A stretch of DNA of 64,000 nt from Carcharhinus amblyrhynchos (taxonomy: Eukaryota). Location of the stretch: contig OZ336874.1 in assembly GCA_965287045.1 (NCBI GenBank), forward strand, positions 90,024,001 through 90,088,000. Direction: 5' to 3'. Shown here piece by piece: positions 5,151 through 63,775 of the stretch. The notes beneath the pieces were generated by a model. It did not search any database. It was not told where the DNA came from and saw only the letters and a list, made by a program, of their open reading frames with translations. Positions within the stretch are counted from its first letter, which is position 1. The number at the start of each line of letters is the position of its first letter. The translations under genes and the position numbers were made by a program.

Positions 5151-6482
5151 AGATAGTTGAGTCATGTTGAGATCAAAAAGGAGGAGGTTTGGGGTTCTTG
5201 AGAAACATTAAGGTAGAAACGCTCAGGTAAGTCCCCAGAGCCTGATGGGATATATCCCAGAATACTAAAAGAGACAAGGCAGGAAATTGCTCGGGCCTTG
5301 AGAGAAATTTTTGTATCCTCACTGGCTATAGGGGAGGTCCCATAAGATTGAAGAATAACCAATGTTGTTCCATTGTTTAACAAGGGTAGCAAGAATAATC
5401 TAGGTAATTACAGGGGTGATGAGCCTTATGTCAGTGGTAGGGAAATTATTGGAGAGGATTCTTCAAGACAGGATTTAATCCGACTTGGAAATAAGTGGAC
5501 ATATTTGCAAGGGGCAACATGGTTTTGTGATGAGGAAGTCATGTTTCACTAACTTGATTGAGTTGTTTGAGGAAGTGATTGATGAGGGTAGGGCAGTGGA
5601 TGTTATCTATATGGACTTCAGTAAGGCTTTTGACAAGGTCCCTCATGGAAGACTGGTTCAGAAGGTGAAGTCGCACGAGATCAAAGGTGAGCTGGCAAGG
5701 TGAATACAGAATTAGCTCGGTCACAGAAGACAAAGGGTAGCAGTGGAAGGGTGTGTTTCTGAATGGAGGGATGTGACAAGTTACGTTCCTCAGGGATCAG
5801 TGCTGGGACCCTTGCTGTTTGTAATATATATAAATGATTTGGAGGAAAATGTAACTGGTTTGATTCGTAAGTTTGTGGACAACAGAAAGGTTGGTGGATT
5901 TGCGGATAACGATGAGAACCATCAGAGGATACAACAGGACATAAGTTGGTTGGAGACTTGGGCGGACAGGTGGGAGATGGTGTTTAATCCAGACAAATGT
6001 GAGGTAATGCATTTTGGAAGGTCTAATAGAGATAGGAAAATATACAGTAAATGGCAGAACCCTACAGGTACACAGGTCACTGAATGCAGATGGAGAAGGT
6101 AGTCATGAAGGTATACAGCATGCTTGCCTTCATTGGCTGGGGCATTGAGTTTAAAAATTGGCATGTCATGTTGCAGCTTGAAGAGCCAATTATGAGGGGG
6201 CATAGGTTTAAGGTGTGAGGGGCAAGGTTTAAAGGAAATGTAGGAGGCAAATTTTTTACACAGCGAGTTGTGGGTGCCTGGAACTCGCTGTCGAGGGAGA
6301 TAATGGAAGCAGATACAATAGTGACTTTTAAGGGGTGTCTTGACAAATACATGAATAGGATGAGAATAGAGGGATATGGTCCCTGGAAGGGTAGGAGGTT
6401 TTAGTTCAGTTGGGCAGCATGGTCGGTGCCAGCTTGGAGGGCCGAAGGGCCTGTTCTGTGCTGTAATTTTCTTTGTTCTTTG
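5151..6482 (+). mobile_element. 5'-truncated CR1/HER1 LINE, degenerate RT region
   Basis: ORF pieces QHGF..KSC.TNL, DFSKAFDKVPH, VPQGSVLGPLLF; tail GGGCCGAAGGGCCTGTTCTGTGCTGT..(TTCTTTG)n. Confidence 0.9.
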
Positions 6483-6670
6483 TTTCGTCTGGATGCTCCA
6501 GTTTCCTCCCACAGGCCAAAGATGCGCATGTTAGGCGAATTGGCTATCGCAAATTCTCCCTCAATGCACCTGAACAGGTGCTGGAATGTGGCGACTAGGG
6601 GATTTTCACAGTAACTTCATTGCCGTGTTAATGTAAGCCTACTTATGACACTAATAAATAAACCTTAAAA
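6483..6670 (+). mobile_element. V-SINE 3' half, AATAAA-type tail
   Basis: GCTCCAGTTTCCTCCCACAG...GGCGACTAGGGGATTTTCACAGTAACTTC...TAATAAATAAAC. Confidence 0.8.
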
Positions 6671-23003: not shown

Positions 23004-23199
23004 CTTGGCCACAATGGTTATCACTGCTGCTTCACAGCACCAGGGAACTGGGTTCAATGCCCAGCTTGGGTAACTGTCTGTGTGGAGTTTGCATGTTCTC
23101 CCGATGTCTTTGTGGGTTTCCTCTGGGTACTCCGTTTTCCTCCCACATTCTGAAAGATGTGCTGGTTAGTTGCATTGACCCAAACAGATTGTGGCGACT
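23004..23199 (+). mobile_element. V-SINE 5' part (host of the full-length CR1)
   Basis: Head and V-domain end in GTGGCGACT; continues as GACTAGGGGAATTTCACAG at 27913. Confidence 0.85.
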
Positions 23200-23548
23200 C
23201 AGTGTTCTCCGAAGCAGTGTACTGGTGGCTGGTGAGTCTTGAACTTGCGATTTACTTTATTTCTTCTGTGTATTGCCGGTTTGCGGGGTTTTTGTTTGTT
23301 TTCGCTTTCCGTAGCTGGAGATAGGCGTGGGGGCAGTCGGGAAGGGAGCGCGGGAGTACAAAAAGAAGGCCGCAATAGACAGTGGGCAGCTTCGGGAGCA
23401 GGCAGTGGAGTGAGGTGGGTGCAGAGTGAGTGCTGTAAGGGCTTTGGCTCACAGGGCTTAGGTGAGAGCAGGCTTAGGCAAAGTGAGTTACTTATCCAAT
23501 TTTTCCTGTTTTCCATTTGTGTCCATAATTCTAAGGGTGGTCAAATAA

Positions 23549-24448
23549 ATGGCAGGGTCCTTGGGGAGACGCGTCAGCTGCGTTAGGTGCAATATGTGGG
23601 AGTTCCTGGAGATGCCACATCTCCTGAGAGTCCAAATCTGCACCAAATGCAGCGGTTGAGGGCCCGGGTTAGGCAATTAGAGCTGAGACTGGAAGATTTA
23701 TTTTCAGTCAGGGAGAACGAGGCAATAATGAATAGGAACCACGGTCACGTGGAGATCCCAGAGCCTAGTGGGGGGGATGGGTGGGTTACTGTTAGGAAGG
23801 GGAAAAAAGAAGAGGAGTAATGGTCCAAAGACTACCCCAGAGGTAGTCTCCCAAAATATCAGGGGTAAGGCGACAACTGGGGTAGAAAGGGCAAGAGAGG
23901 AAGACCAGAATGCCTCAGAGGGAAGGAAGGGGGCTGGATATGAGATAGTGGTGGGGGTTGGGAGGGTTAAAGGAATTGATAGGCGGTTCTGTGGGCAAAA
24001 GCGGGATTCCAGGATGGTAGTCCGCCTCCCTGGAGCAGGAGTACAGGATGTGTCAGAGAGGGTAGAGGGAATGTTGAAGGGCCAAGGGACCCAGACGGAT
24101 GTAATTATACATGTAGGAGAGAAGGAAGTAGGAAGGAAGAGCAGGGGGGATATACGTAGGCAGTTCAGGGAGTTGAGGGCCAGGCTGAAGTGCAGGGCCT
24201 CCAGGGCAGTGTTCTCTGGGCTGCTGCCAGTGCCCAGTAATAGCAGGGCTAAAAATAATGAGATCCTACAGCTGAATGCATGGCTGAAGGATTGGTGCAG
24301 GATAGAGGGTTTTAGTTTTGTACACCATTGGGAAGTCTTTGTGAGGGAAGGGCACCTGTACAAGTGGGATGGGGAACATTTAAATGGGAAGGCCACACAT
24401 ATTTTAGCTGGGAGGTTAGCTGGAGTGTTTCGGCAGAGTTTAAACTAA
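23549..24448 (+). pseudogene. CR1 ORF1: zinc finger/leucine zipper plus SGNH esterase-like domain (frameshifted)
   Basis: ATG at 23549; CVRCNMWE..CTKC; RLRARVRQLELRLEDL; IDRRFCG..RDSRMVVRLPGA.VQDVSER; SGLLPVP; WDGEHLN. Confidence 0.88.
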
Positions 24449-27371
24449 TATGGAGCGGGGGTGGAGGGGAGACAGGTAACTCAGTAGGCACTGGGATTGG
24501 GAGTGAGTTGGGTGACAGGGTAAGTCTAGATGATAGGAAAATCTCCCAGGAGAAGAAAGATCCAAGTGGGCCTGAGGGTCTTCAGTGCATCTGTTTTAAT
24601 GCGAGGAGTGTGACAGGTGAGACGGATGAACTTAAGACCTTAGTGTTCGCAAGGAATTTGGATGTGGTGGCAGTGACGGAGACGTGGTTAAAGGAAGGGC
24701 AGAACTGGCAGCTAAATACTCCTCAGTATAAGTGTTTAAGGCATGACAGGGGAGGGTTGAAAAGAGGAGGGGGAGTGGCGCTGTTAGTTAGGGAGCACAT
24801 CACAGCGGTGCAGAGGGAGGACAATATAGAGGGGTTAGGAATTGAGTCTCTGTGGGTGGAGTTGAGGAATAGGAAAGGAGCGATTACTATGCTAGGGGTG
24901 TACTACAGACCACCCGACAGCCGCAGACAGTGGAAGAGGGTATATGTAGAGACATTTTGGGTAAGTGTAGGAAGAACAGGGTTGTTGTAGTGGGAGATTT
25001 TAATCTCCCTGGGGTGGATTGGAAGGTGCCTAGAGCTGAGGGTTCGGACGGGGAGGAATTCGTAAGATGTGTATTGGAAGGGTCCTTGGAGCAGTGTGTA
25101 GACAGCCCGACTAGAGAGGGGGCTATACTGGATTTAGTTCTGGGCAATGAGCTGGGTCACGTGGTTGAGGTTGCAGTAGGTGAACATGTGGCTAATAGTG
25201 ACCACAACTCTGTCTACTTTAGGATACTAATGGAAAAAGATGAGTGCTGTCCTAAGGGGAGGGTGCTAAATTGGGGGAAAGCTAGATACAACTGGATTAG
25301 GCAGGAGCTTAGGGGTACAGACTGGGATAGGCTGTTGGAGGGCAAGCCCACGTTAGGTACGTGGGAGTCTTTCAAGGGAAAACTGAAATGGGTGCAGGAA
25401 AGGCATGTGCCGGTTAGGAGGAAGGATGGGAAAGGTAGGATTAGAGAGCCGTGGATTACTAGAGATATTGAGGACCTGGTCAGGAAGAAATGAAAGGCGT
25501 ATGTTAGGTCTAAACAACTGGGAACGGAGAGAGCGTTAGAGGAATACAGAGAGAGTAGGAGGGATCTCAAAAGTGAAGTAAGGAGGGCAAAAAGGGAGCA
25601 TGAAATGGCTTTGGCAGGTAGGATTAAGGAAAATCCAAAGGCGTTTTACTCCTATGTTAGGAACAAAAGGGTGGCCAGGGGAAAAATCGGTCCCCTCAGG
25701 GACAGAGGAAGGGAATTGTGCTTAGAGTCCGGGGGAATGGGGGAGATCCTGAATGAATACTTTGCATCGGTATTCACGAAGGACAGGGGCTTGATGTCTG
25801 GTACAGTCTTCGAGGGAGCTTTAGACCAATTGAAGGAACTATTGATTACGAGGAAAGAGGTGTTAGGGCTTTTAGGTAGCATTAAAACTGATAAATCTCC
25901 GGGGCCTGATGGCATTTATCCTAGGCTGCTTAGGGAGGCGAGAGATGAAATTGCTGGGCCTCTGACGCAAATCTTTGTCTCTTCTTTGGACACAAGTGAG
26001 GTCCCAGAGGACTGGAGGATAGCGAACATGGTACCGTTGTTTAAAAAGGGTAGGAGGAATAACCCGGGTAACTATAGGCCGGTGAGTTTGACGTCAGTGG
26101 TAGGCAAGTTGATGGAGAGGATTCTTAGGGATAGGATGTATGAGCACTTAGAGCGTTGCGATCCAATTAAGGATACGCAGCATGGCTTTGTAACAGGGAA
26201 GTCTTGCCTTACGAATCTGGTAGAATTTTTTGAGGAGGTGACAAAAACGATTGACAAAGGATGAGCTGTTGATGTCGTCTATATGGATTTCAGTAAGGCG
26301 TTTGACAAAGTCCCTCACGGTAGGTTGGTAGAAAAGCTTAAGGCTCATGGGATACAAGGCCAGGTATCTAGATGGGTTGAGAACTGGCTTGCTAAGAGGA
26401 GACAGAGAGTAGTAATGGAGGGGTCATTTTCTAGCTGGAGGTCTGTCACTAGTGGTGTGCCGCAGGGCTCAGTACTGGGATCTCTTCTCTTTATGGTATA
26501 AATAAATGACTTGGAAGAGGGAGTAAGTGGTGTGATCAGCAAATTTGCAGATGACACTAAGATAGCTGGACTGGCGGGCAGTGAGGAGCAGTGTCTGGCA
26601 ATACAACGGGATATTGATAGGCTGGTATATTGGGCAGATATATGGCAAATGGAGTTTAATACGGATAAATGTGAGGTGATGCATTTTGGCTGGAATAATG
26701 TAGGGGGGAGTTATATGATAAAGGGTAAGCCTATAAAGAGAATAGAAACGCAGCGGGACCTGGGGGTGCAAGTGCACAAGTCTTTGAAGGTGGCAGTACA
26801 AGTGGAGAAGGTTATGAAGAAAGCTTATGGTATGTTAGCCTTTATAGGAAGGGGTATAGAATATAAGAGCTGGAGTCTAATGTTGCAGTTGTATAGAATG
26901 TTGGTTAGGCCGCATTTAGAGTGCTGCGTCCAGTTCTGGTCGCCTTACTACCGGAAGGACGTTGAGACTCTGGAGAGAGTGCAGAGGAGGTTTACCAGGA
27001 TGTTGCCTGGTATGGAAGGACTGGGTTATAAGGAAAGATTGAGCAAGTTGGGGCTGCTTTCCCTTGAAAGACGGCGACTGAGGGGGTATCTAATAGAGGT
27101 ATATAAGATTATGAAGGGTATAGATAGAGTAAACAGTGGTAAGCTATTTCCTATGTTAGAAACGCACAGTACGAGGGGCCACGGGCTTAGGGTGAGGGGG
27201 GAGAGGTATAACACAGATATTAGAGGGAGGTTTTTCACACAGAGGGTAGTGGGTGTATGGAATGCTCTGCCAAGTAAGGTGGTGGAGGCAGGCACGCTGG
27301 AGTTGTTTAAGAGTAACTTAGACAGGCACATGAGTGGGTTAGAGATGGGAGAATATAGGAGATTGTTTTAA
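24439..27371 (+). pseudogene. CR1 ORF2: APE endonuclease plus reverse transcriptase (one frameshift near 24930; stops ending at 25493, 26264, 26501)
   Basis: NARS, VTETWL, GGGVAL, YYRPP, GDFN, LDLVL, SDH; SPGPDGI, NYRPVSLTS, DFSKAFDKVPH, GVPQGSVLG, FADDTK. Confidence 0.95.
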
Positions 27372-27912
27372 ATAAGATTCATTAGCACTGGGACGTCCCT
27401 GGTAATGTAAAAGGATGTGGTATGATACTAATGTTTTTCTCTTTTAATTCACAGGTTTTAAGTCGGTCCGCCTTGTTGTCCAACGAAGGGCATACACGCG
27501 ATGGGTCATACTTGGGCTGCTGTTGAATGTTTGAGAGTAGCCTAGTGCTTCATGTCATTAGTGTGTGCTTAACTGGACCAGACGCTGGGCAACACGACAG
27601 CTCAGTAACTATCACTGTTTGCTGTGCAGACACATGGATTTGGGCCAGTCTCTGTGGGAGTTTGCGCATTCTCCCCGTGCTTGCGTGTGTTTTCTCCGGG
27701 TGCTCCGGTTTCCTCCCACACCCCAAAGATGTACTATTAGGCTGATTGGAGGTAATAAATTGTCCCTAAATTAGTTTCCCTCAATGTGGAATGCCATAAA
27801 CAATAGATAAGGGTCATGGGTGGAGGGGGGGGACTGGTAATGTTAAAATGGTGGCGCGAGCTCGTTCGGCCAAAGGGCCTGTTTCCCGGGCTGTTTTCGT
27901 TCTTTGTTCTTT

Positions 27913-27992
27913 GACTAGGGGAATTTCACAGTAACTTCACTGCAGTGTTAATGTAAGCTTTACTTGTGATTAATAAATCTACTTTACTTATT
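27913..27992 (+). mobile_element. V-SINE 3' tail (continuation of 23004-23199)
   Basis: GACTAGGGGAATTTCACAGTAACTTCACTGCAGTGTTAATGTAAGC..TAATAAA. Confidence 0.85.
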
Positions 27993-50039: not shown

Positions 50040-50960
50040 GGTCAGCCAGTCAACTGGGAATAGTGCAGGGATGGGAGATAGTGTTAAATTTCCCAATCCT
50101 TTGTGAATCGGCTAAATTCTTCACTCATGAAGAATTTTCATTCAACATAATGTCTGGAATACTGCAATGGCTGAAGTGTGCTTTCAAGTATTCTATTATC
50201 TCCCCTGTTTAGTAACAGCTGATGTATTGCCCAGTAGTCAGAACAGTAATCCAGAGTAACAAGATAATTAGTTCCTGCTATAGTGAAGAGGTCTACTCTC
50301 AGCTTTACCCATGGTGTGTCTGGGATGCTATGCATCATCAATAGCTCTTAAGGTTGTTTATCTAGGTGCTCATTACAAGCAAAATACCACTCAATATGAG
50401 GAGTCCAAGAGGCGTAGACAAAGGTCATAGGTAGAAGAAGGATTGGAATGAGGCACTCACTGAATGTTAAAATGGCGGCACGGGCTTGTAGGGCAGAAGG
50501 GCCTGTTTCCTGTGCTGTGTTGTTCTTTGTACTTTGATCATTAATTTCATTGCCCATGTTTGGCCAGTAGAGCACGTAACTTACCTTCCTGAGACTCGAT
50601 TTAATTCCTTGATGGCTTGTTTGGATGCACTTCAATATCTATTCTGTCATATCCTGTGGGATGATGATTATTGCCTTTGTTCAAGTTGTCACCTTGGCCT
50701 ATCAATTCATCTTGCTCTGTCCAATATGCTCTTGTGACCACAGGTGTGCCCTTGCTGCTCTCTGGATATCCTTTCATTACTACTTCTTGTAGCACTTGGA
50801 GGGTTGCATCTTGCTAAGTTGTTCACTCAATTTGAGCAAGGCACTTGTCTGTCGAATCAATGTTCCTGCTGGGTTGATGATTTTCAGAGCATGTTGAGCT
50901 GCTGTAGTACTTCTCACCGTAGTACTGCAGCACTGGCACTGTGGTCACTCGTCGTTTGAT
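50040..50960 (-). pseudogene. Gypsy pol fragment (linker, integrase zinc finger and core)
   Basis: LQEVVMKGYP..RAYW..QDEL; SHQGI..SLRK..VLYWPNM.NEI; PWVKL.VDLF..YLVTLDYCSDYW. Confidence 0.85.
50400..50535 (+). mobile_element. Short CR1 3' tail inserted in the Gypsy integrase
   Basis: AATGTTAAAATGGCGGC..GAAGGGCCTGTTTCC..GTTCTTTG shares diagnostic sequence with 27839-27912. Confidence 0.75.
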
Positions 50961-57841: not shown

Positions 57842-59242
57842 AAATGGCAGAGGTTATAGTGGATGCATTGGTGGTTATTTTCCAGACATCACTGGATTCC
57901 GGGGAAGTGCCGGAAGATTGGAAAACGGCTAATGTTACGCCGTTGTTTAAGAAGGGTGCCAGGCAAAAGGCAGGGAATTATAGGCCGGTTAGTTTAACGT
58001 CTGTGGTAGGTAAAATGCTAGAATCCGTCATTAAGGAGGAAATTGCGAGGCATCTTGAAGGGAATTGCTTGATAGAGCAGACGCAGCACGGTTTCATTAA
58101 AGGGAAGTCGTGTCTGACAAATTTACTGGAGTTCTATGAGGATGTGTCTAGGGCGGTCGATAGAGGAGAGCCGGTGGATGTGGTCTTTCTGGATTTTCAG
58201 AAGGCGTTTGACAAGTACCTCATAAGAGGTTATTGCAGAAGGTAAGGGGACTTGGAGTTGGGGGTAGGGTGTTAGCGTGGATAGAGGACTGGTTGTCAAA
58301 TAGGAGGCAGAGAGTGGGGGTCAACGGGTGCTATTCAGATTGGCGGATGGTGACTAGTGGAGTGCCCCAGGGGTCGGTTCTGGGGCCTCAGCTTTTTACC
58401 ATTTATATAGATGATCTGGAGGAGGGAACCGAGTGTAGGGTGTCGAAATTTGCTGATGACACCAAGATTGGGGGAACGGCAAATTGTGCGGAGGGTGTGG
58501 AGCGTCTGCAGAAGGATCTAGATAGGCTGGGCGAATGGGCCAGGAAATGGCAAATGGAATTTAACGTTGGCAAGTGTGAGGCAAATGGGATGCTGGCCTT
58601 CATAGCGAAGGGGATTGAATATAAAAGTAGGGAGGTCTTGCTGCAGCTGTATAGGGCATTGGTGAGGCCGCAGCTGGAGTACTGTGTGCAGTTTTGGGCG
58701 CCACACCTGCGCAAAGATATTTTGGCCTTGGAGGGAGTGCAGAGGAGGTTTACTAGGCTGATACCGGAGTTGAGGGGGTTGAGCTATGAGGAGAGGCTGA
58801 ATAAAGTAGGCTTGTACTCGTTAGAGTTTAGAAGAATGAGGGGAGATCTCATTGAGACGTATAAGATGATGAGTGGGATGGATAGGATAGAGGGGGAGAG
58901 ACTCTTCCCGCTCAAAAAAGACAGTAGGACTAGGGGGCACAGCCTCAAGATAAAGGGGGGGCGTTTTAGAACGGAGTTGAGGAGGAACTTCTTCACTCAA
59001 AGGGTGGTGAATCTCTGGAATTCTCTACCCGTTGAAGTGGTGGAGGCTGCCTCGCTAAATATTTTCAAGAAGCGGGTTGATGGGTTTTTGATAAGAGAGG
59101 GGATTAAGGGTTATGGGGAGAGGGCCGGAAAGTGGAACTGAGCCACGACAGATCAGCCATGATCTTATTGAATGGCGGGGCAGGCTCGAAGGGCCAGATG
59201 GCCTACTCCTGCTCCTATTTCTTATGTTCTTATGTTCTTATG
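57842..59242 (+). mobile_element. Young 5'-truncated CR1 with a 147-bp internal deletion
   Basis: ORFs 57844-58245 and 58233-59141 with RT motifs; (TTCTTATG)n tail. Confidence 0.93.
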
Positions 59243-59489
59243 TAATCGCCCTGACACTAAAGGGCAATTTAGCATGGCCAATCCACCTAACCATAAACCA
59301 TTGGAGGAGTATGCAGGAGTAGTGATTTGTAGGTTAGAGGGCTTTGTCAAACTTCATCATTCATTTTTACTTTGCACCTTTTCATGTAAAATTTACAGTG
59401 TTATGGGAAAGAGTAGGGGAGGAATGCTAATAGATTTACTGTTTCAAAGAGCTGACACCAACAGAATAGGCTGAATGGTTCCCTTTTAT

Positions 59490-62558: not shown

Positions 62559-63775
62559 GTCATAAGAACATAAGAGCATAAGAACATAAGAAATAGGAGC
62601 AGGAGTAGGCCATCTAGCCCCTTGAGCCTGCCCCGCCATTCAATAAGATCATGGCTGATCTGTCGTGTCTCAGTTCCACATTCCCGCCCTCTCCCCATAA
62701 CCCTTAATCCCCTTGCCTATCAAAAACCTATCAACCCGCGTCTTAAAAATATTTAGCGAGGCAGCCTCCACCACTTCAACGGGCAGAGAATTCCAGAGAT
62801 TCACCACCCTTTGAGTGAAGAAGTTCCTCCTCAACTCCGTTCTAAACCGCACCCCCCCTTTATCTTGAGGCTGTGCCCTCTAGTCCTACTCTCCCTTCTG
62901 AGCAGGAAGAGCCTCTCCACCTCTATCCTATCCATCCCATTCATCAACTTATATGTCTCAATGAGATCTCCCCTCATTCTTCTAAACTCTAATGAGTACA
63001 AACCTAGTTTATTCAGCCTCTCCTCATAGTTCAACCTCCTCAACTCCGGTATCAGCCTAGTAAACCTCCTCTGCACTCCCTCCAAGGCCAAAATATCCTT
63101 GCGTAAGTGCGGCGACCAAAACTGCACACAGTACTCCAGCTGCGGCCTCACCAATGCCCTATACAGCTGCAGCAAGACCTCCCTACTTTTATATTCAATC
63201 CCCCTCGCTATGAAGGCCAGCATCCCATTCGCCTTCCTGACCACCTGCTGCACCTGTAGGCTGGGTTTTTGCGACTCATGCACAAGGACCCTAAGGTCCC
63301 TCTGCACCGTTGCATGGTGCAGTTTTTCGCCATGTAAGTAATAGTCCTGCCTACCATTATTCCTACAAAAGTGGACCACTTCACACTTGCCAACATTAAA
63401 TTTCATTTGCTAGTTCCTGGCCCATTCGCCCAGCCTATCTAGATCCTTCTGCAGACTCTCCACACCCTCCGCACAATTTGTCGTTCCCCCAATCTTGGTA
63501 TCATCAGCAAATTTTGACACCATACACTCGGTTCCCTCCTCCAGATCATCTATATAAATGGTAAATAGCTGAGGCCCCAGCACCGGCCCCTGGGGCACTC
63601 CACTAGCCACCAACCGCCAATCCGAATAGCACCCATTGACCCCCACTCTCTGCCTCCTATTTGACAACCAGTCCTCTATCCACGCTAACACCCTACCCCC
63701 AACTCCATACACCCTGACCTTCTGTAATAACCTCTTGTGAGGTACCTTGTCAAATGCCTCCTGAAAATCAAGAAA
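62559..63775 (-). mobile_element. Young 5'-truncated CR1 (same subfamily as 57842-59242)
   Basis: ORFs 63410-63778, 62831-63406 and 62670-62852; matching tail. Confidence 0.93.

Follow-up and report, generated by a model that had tools for sequence, protein, structure and literature searches.

The window, a stretch of 64,000 nucleotides analysed at its full length, contains a dead full-length CR1 LINE at 23200-27912 (+). This element is nested within a free type-B V-SINE, the head of which lies at 23007 and the tail of which resumes at 27913. Architecture and sequence style underlie the presumed identities used here (CR1, V-domain, HE1, shark); for CR1 the presumption follows architecture and tail, and the ORF2 trees described below contain copies of this genome alone. 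The window copy belongs to subfamily W, and its features are compared with those of subfamilies X, Y and Z.

23007-23199 (+): 5′ portion of the surrounding free V-SINE (type B, family D2/D20), which continues at 27913
23196-23199 (+): left TSD copy, GACT (right copy at 27913-27916); a single GACT in the type-B SINE majority
23200-27912 (+): CR1-type LINE copy, subfamily W, full-length and inactivated, delimited by the 5′ and 3′ ends of 30 loci
23232-23237 (+): putative splice-donor-like GTGAGT, shared by W with Y and Z, the latter two represented by a single long copy each
23549-24448 (+): ORF1, resembling esterases (SGNH), with a start predicted from the sequence and Pfam matches below curated cut-offs
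24570-27371 (+): ORF2, endonuclease-reverse transcriptase (PF03372, PF14529, PF00078), several broken frames, start approximate
27428-27454 (+): putative splice-acceptor-like site common to W, X, Y and Z, with an AG preceded by a pyrimidine tract and a branch-point-like motif
27465-27579 (+): folded domain, a predicted three-way junction by fold z of the W, X, Y and Z majorities, which includes a supposed decayed tail as a hairpin
27587-27638 (+): V-SINE-derived head with the B-box deleted, by alignment to free V-SINEs
27639-27734 (+): V-domain, by inter-subfamily differences and likeness to the free type-A SINE
27735-27770 (+): end of the similarity to free V-SINEs, with identity in about 22 of 33 columns
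27771-27849 (+): fast-evolving spacer
27850-27912 (+): terminal stem-loop and GTTCTTT repeats, of the type found in V-less sister CR1s
27913-27985 (+): 3′ part of the host type-B V-SINE (family D19)
50390-50535 (+): 5′-truncated LINE 3′ end, from a different subfamily within this clade

The LINE copy in the window

The 5′ ends of the LINE in 30 loci fall mostly at 23197-23204, and the 3′ ends at 27906-27912 in 30/30. In Pfam the ORF1 product matches OSK at E 1.2e-5; its match to Lipase_GDSL_2 has E 3.8e-4, and neither reaches the curated cut-off. All three ORF2 matches are above theirs, giving the AP endonuclease and reverse transcriptase of a CR1-clade LINE. Copies also show the constant 3′ terminus, closing in a stem-loop and short tandem repeat, the variable 5′ truncation and the short or missing TSD of this clade. 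Canonical vertebrate CR1 elements, abundant in elasmobranchs, carry an esterase ORF1, to which the ORF1 here is putatively alike, and an APE-RT ORF2 as here; unlike the present copy, no SINE-derived or long structured 3′ UTR is mentioned for them in the excerpted text of the source (PMC13343379).

The 3′ UTR of 541 nt follows the ORF2 stop at 27369-27371 and closes at 27912 (+). The original prediction had set a 540-bp UTR inside TSDs; the extent of the UTR and the presence of a TSD stand, but the TSD measures just 4 bp (GACT), duplicated here against the single GACT of the type-B SINE majority. The prediction also cited 50400-50535 as an independent insertion with the diagnostic end. The stretch 50390-50535 is instead a 5′-truncated LINE 3′ end, with another LINE locus (L155) and not a free SINE as its best match.

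At the 5′ end of the LINE (23200-23390; loci L184, L193 and L377), some copies have an initiator-like start about 30 nt past a TATA-like box in upstream repeat units. A second GC-rich/TATA-like unit lies near 23345-23365, and in L184 the first 160 nt are duplicated. The sequence arrangement suggests a tandem-monomer promoter.

CR1 insertions recur in the 3′ part of type-B V-SINEs, as seen for the window copy and two nested CR1 tail fragments (L118:- and L040); a target preference is possible, as is the mere abundance of these SINEs. At 6419-6660 the end of a GTTCTTT-tailed short-UTR CR1 abuts a 5′-truncated V-SINE, so such LINE/V-SINE junctions can arise by chance nesting. Two young copies of another CR1 family, at 58212-59243 and 62568-63745, lie 3-5 kb from each other in inverted orientation and are 94% alike.

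A V-SINE segment shared by one LINE clade

Between ORF2 and the terminal tail the UTR resembles the free V-SINEs of the same genome. A SINE-like head without a B-box had been proposed from 27587, and it is recovered there, with 31-33 of 51 columns identical to the free V-SINE majority. The B-box region is one 18-nt gap in all four subfamilies and is deleted in 15/15 LINE rows, leaving an alignable head in place of the tRNA-derived head with A and B boxes of a V-SINE. From the type-A free SINE the V-domain shows 8-10 differences in 94-95 nt, or 89-91% identity to the dominant free SINE of the genome, which is presumed to be HE1/V. The name V-domain is similarly assumed, 27639-27734 having been matched only to free SINEs of this genome. 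The V region also holds more CpG in LINE copies than in free SINEs, as had been noticed, with a mean of 4.2 (n=13) against 2.7 (n=170); age alone may explain the excess. The terminal CR1 tail consists, as described, of a CR1-type stem-loop and GTTCTTT repeats, and it is not the tail common to the free V-SINEs of the genome.

The 2.9-Gb genome was searched with the ORF2 end plus the UTR as query, and 40 of 6,893 candidates were scored, one of them the window copy itself. The ORF2 end was joined to the same SINE-derived UTR in 39/39 non-self loci, with at least 785 of 813 nt covered (93-95%). At these LINE loci the 3′ end is constant and the 5′ ends are scattered. The module also occurs in other subfamilies, namely Y (copies 98-99% alike), Z (97-98%), X (89-92%) and several smaller ones. 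In subfamily X (L328, L334, L337) about 80 extra nt past the ORF2 stop look as if the beginning of the UTR had been duplicated in place. A sample of 1,000,000 bases, drawn as 100 evenly placed 10-kb stretches, held 210 V-domain matches. Thirteen had the LINE-type head, all 13 with a GTTCTTT-type tail, a density that would put the LINE-type copies of the whole genome in the tens of thousands.

The V-bearing CR1s form one clade (24 of 56 rows, support 100/100) in a tree of 836 ORF2 columns. Their sister is a short-UTR, GTTCTTT-tailed family, here called S, and further short-UTR outgroups with the same tail type branch outside (support 100/100 and 98/97). A smaller tree gave the same nesting. The trees were built from copies of this genome with up to 3-4 rows per group, using 56 of 152 rows and, in the smaller one, 40 of 128 (one partial row dropped). 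A single gain of the V segment on the stem of the clade would be the simplest reading of these sequences. With 39 of 39 further copies and one gain on the tree, the capture of a V-SINE into a LINE is real and lineage-wide, as had been proposed for a master element.

The segment does not move independently, as a unit that begins at the head and is flanked by a TSD of its own, and it is fixed in all subfamilies. Among loci found by the head alone, 26/30 extend upstream, by at least 50 nt into the LINE UTR or to ORF2, and L129 and L142 begin at the head. Five copies (L040, L129, L142, L205 and L077) are 5′-truncated within a few bases of the start of the SINE head (27584-27590), three of which came from queries beginning at the head, leaving an excess unproven. 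Such truncations could reflect stalling of the RT at the fold, or a minor head-started RNA.

Constraint and predicted RNA structure

Among the W, X, Y and Z majorities the V-domain differs at 35/576 positions (0.061), against 139/409 (0.34) at four-fold sites of ORF2. The corresponding p-distances are 0.064 for the terminal tail, 0.146 for the head, 0.22 for the 130 nt upstream and 0.47 for the spacer. For the pairs W-Z and X-Y, which share part of the tree, the V-domain gives 12/192 against 47/135 at four-fold sites (Fisher p 5e-11). The V-domain distances among subfamilies are low and flat, at 4-9 of 96 sites; Y and Z each sit on a branch of 0.13, yet 4/96 of their V sites differ. The distances of the head and upstream domain track the ORF2 ranking, with W-X closest and Y-Z farthest. 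Within-subfamily variation by region was not used, since the loci had been picked by likeness to that region.

Retention of the V-domain by selection had been suggested, and on these sequence comparisons, including that with the adjacent UTR, it is likely. As the constraint was measured between master lineages, it would have acted on elements that went on copying. A coding role was considered and rejected: every frame contains 1-6 stops, and none is open across the block in any subfamily.

A multi-branch fold is predicted for the head together with the 5′ part of the V-domain, with a helix between head and V-domain as its closing stem (z -1.5 to -3.3). Across 19 copies (15 LINE, 4 SINE), 92.8% of the cells are paired, and 7/35 pairs show two-sided change, about four of these changes being events at the subfamily or SINE-versus-LINE level. 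The covariation exceeds 500/500 shuffles and all slid controls, with the structure derived from one of the rows and the shuffle test inflated by related rows. Conservation extends to the 3′ half of the V-domain, where the fold has no unusual stability (z 0.0 to +1.0), so folding cannot explain the conservation of the whole domain.

Upstream, the stretch 27465-27579 has fold z values of -6.4 (W), -2.0 (X), -5.0 (Y) and -5.3 (Z) on the majorities, with 94.3% of cells paired. Changes there are mostly one-sided, with little two-sided change, and covariation is not above shuffles (39/500). One hairpin of this domain is lost whole in subfamily Y. A search of Rfam 15 returned no match at the gathering score, two chance-level matches (E 1.3 and 4.1) and none in L046.

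Origin of the segment and the meaning of its retention

The ancestor of the clade probably gained an internal segment of about 470 nt, comprising the V-SINE head and V-domain, likely placed before its own tail, and selection likely kept a folded RNA module thereafter. The segment would have entered the RNA of a master LINE by insertion or template switching, possibly with a cross-back at the GGGCCGAA motif common to SINE and LINE tails. Two features speak against a purely native tail: on its 5′ side, six bases are more SINE-like than S-like, and the spacer is 70-78 nt long, against 66 nt for the type-A SINE body; a crossover at the motif common to both tails would fit these two features. The W spacer reached p 0.03 in 1 of 12 homology tests against SINE bodies or the S 3′ end, and homology was not accepted. 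From this one test and the spacer length, the captured SINE may have extended up to its tail. Loss of the B-box would have abolished internal Pol III activity. The fold of head and V-domain, with the upstream domain, might then act in cis on the Pol II LINE RNA, through stability, export or RNP packaging. ORF2 would still recognise its native cognate stem-loop, as stringent LINEs require in the excerpted account of PMC4176376.

In the form weighed here, the original prediction has transcription of a master LINE continue into a whole V-SINE lying downstream; the LINE would then have adopted the S-type CR1 tail of that SINE for RT recognition and lost its own. The head, V-domain and tail are indeed spaced as in the type-A free SINE, and V-SINEs are known to borrow CR1 tails, on the excerpted text for HE1/HER1 (PMC3747384). 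Yet adoption is unlikely on the evidence of the tail itself, which agrees better with family S (56/68, 57/68, 61/71 and 48/60) than with the CR1-type tail of the free type-A SINE (47/68, 49/65, 51/66 and 44/58). Family S closes 76 nt past the stop with the same stem-loop and repeat, and this tail type is older than the capture within the LINE's own clade, recurring in successive outgroups. The 197 free V-SINE matches of the 1-Mb sample, the sole basis for this question, comprise 104 with tail A, 61 with tail B, 31 unclassed and one with a GTTCTTT-type tail. In that case the tail comes from a CR1 fragment inserted into a type-B SINE, leaving 0/197 free owners of the LINE tail. The piece at 50390-50535 is LINE-derived, and a remnant of a former tail was not found. 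The decayed CR1 tail claimed at 27461-27495 scores no better than shuffles against three tail types (12 tests, p 0.075-0.88); the A that forms CGAAGGGC (27487) is private to the window copy, the majority having G; and the motif, which folds as a hairpin within a larger structure, is lost in subfamily Y. The score, the private base and the loss in Y leave an abandoned tail at this position without grounds. A remnant just past the ORF2 stop, also considered, likewise showed no similarity above shuffles. Since the tail is closer to S, is present in the outgroups and has no free owner, it is most likely, on sequence, native to the LINE, with the gained segment internal; an extinct SINE family with a GTTCTTT-type tail is possible as donor.

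Internal gain also has to be weighed against accounts of the block that differ in its expression, its conservation or its direction of travel. It could be the second exon of a spliced LINE transcript, joining a 5′ leader or ORF1 to the 3′ module in a short non-coding or ORF1-only RNA. In all four subfamilies the conserved block begins exactly at the pyrimidine tract and CAG/G, with divergent sequence 5′ of it, and donor-like sites occur near the 5′ end (the GTGAGT of W, Y and Z) and past ORF1 (W, X, Y and L107). This account is improbable, for the post-ORF1 site is deleted in Z, no leader-joined genomic copy occurs among 40 young Y/Z copies or 127 copies in earlier loci, and no ORF1-joined copy among 30 ORF1-end loci; a first set of 30 loci held no spliced retrocopy. 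In two young copies the truncation falls on the acceptor AG or close to it, and the flanks are unrelated. The range 27397-27690 is covered, with a likeness of at least 85%, by contigs from four sequencing runs of four organisms, the RNA nature of the runs being a guess; none of 15 joints viewed of 45 lies at the acceptor, which carries no weight for expression or splicing. It is very unlikely that the V-domain is a passenger homogenised by gene conversion with free V-SINEs or by module swaps between subfamilies. Free V-SINEs are abundant enough for this, at 197 matches per Mb, and the low, flat V distances would suit it, but seven V columns are common to all four LINE subfamilies and absent in both free SINE types, which makes conversion from free SINEs unlikely. 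Head and upstream domain follow the ORF2 ranking with pairing preserved, and both flanks of the V-domain have diverged, so that exchange would need confinement to the domain. Least credible of all, and close to dismissible, is an origin of the V-domain in the LINE UTR followed by transfer to SINEs, an idea after PMC5786205 (Kojima 2018), which in its excerpted part describes SINE bodies that in some cases incorporate portions of LINE UTRs. V-less CR1s surround the V-bearing clade on the tree, the clade carries a degraded SINE head, and V-SINEs span vertebrates to cnidarians, according to the extract of PMC4824008.

Gain of an internal V-SINE segment has partial likenesses in known systems, described here from excerpts of the cited sources. 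The HE1 V-SINE and the HER1 CR1-type LINE are a SINE-LINE partner pair of sharks and rays (PMC3747384). As there, a V-SINE head and V-domain lie beside a CR1-type stem-loop tail in a shark-like genome. In that pair, however, the SINE takes the LINE tail, whereas here an autonomous LINE houses a B-box-less SINE head and core in its UTR, and its terminal tail differs from those of the free V-SINEs. The closest printed precedent among these excerpts is MER6/MER6A, a mammalian Tc1/Mariner MITE carrying an Ac1-like V-SINE, the copies of which diverge approximately neutrally (PMC6887750). In both cases a V-SINE without independent transcription is spread by another mobile element; in MER6 it is a neutral passenger of a non-autonomous DNA carrier, whereas here the carrier is an autonomous retroelement passing through RNA and the V-domain (0.061 against 0.34 at four-fold sites) is constrained over successive masters. 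In the stringent-type ZfL2-1/ZfL2-2, ORF2 recognises the cognate 3′ stem-loop (PMC4176376), which fits a clade keeping its own tail, although that was shown in L2 elements, not this CR1, and with no SINE-derived module in the excerpt.

According to the excerpt of PMC4824008, it is not known why SINE central domains have been conserved over hundreds of millions of years, the candidates being an RNA-level benefit to the element or a benefit to the host; the extracts of PMC5499810 and PMC11481361 also call their function unknown. In the extract of PMC5786205, a Repbase-wide comparison found no sequence resembling conserved SINE bodies. The literature search, with repeat databases and supplements outside its scope, found no LINE with a V-SINE in its 3′ UTR, and a library entry may exist.

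The system is a nested-element capture, a known kind, and a LINE-held V-SINE makes the question of the V-domain testable. Here an autonomous Pol II element, in which the SINE promoter has been lost, holds the domain as tightly as the RT-recognition tail, and the V-less sister family S offers a natural control. About 6% of V-domain matches (13/210) are LINE ends that repeat annotation would label SINEs. In a wider and tentative reading, the V-domain could be a portable cis-acting RNA element that boosts any retrotransposon RNA, Pol III or Pol II. The CR1 clade would then have domesticated a parasite's domain and built from it a structured, possibly spliced 3′ module of 300 nt, kept by two independent young lineages. 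The constraint between master lineages points to a benefit for the element itself, and the captured SINE core likely helps the RNA that carries it.
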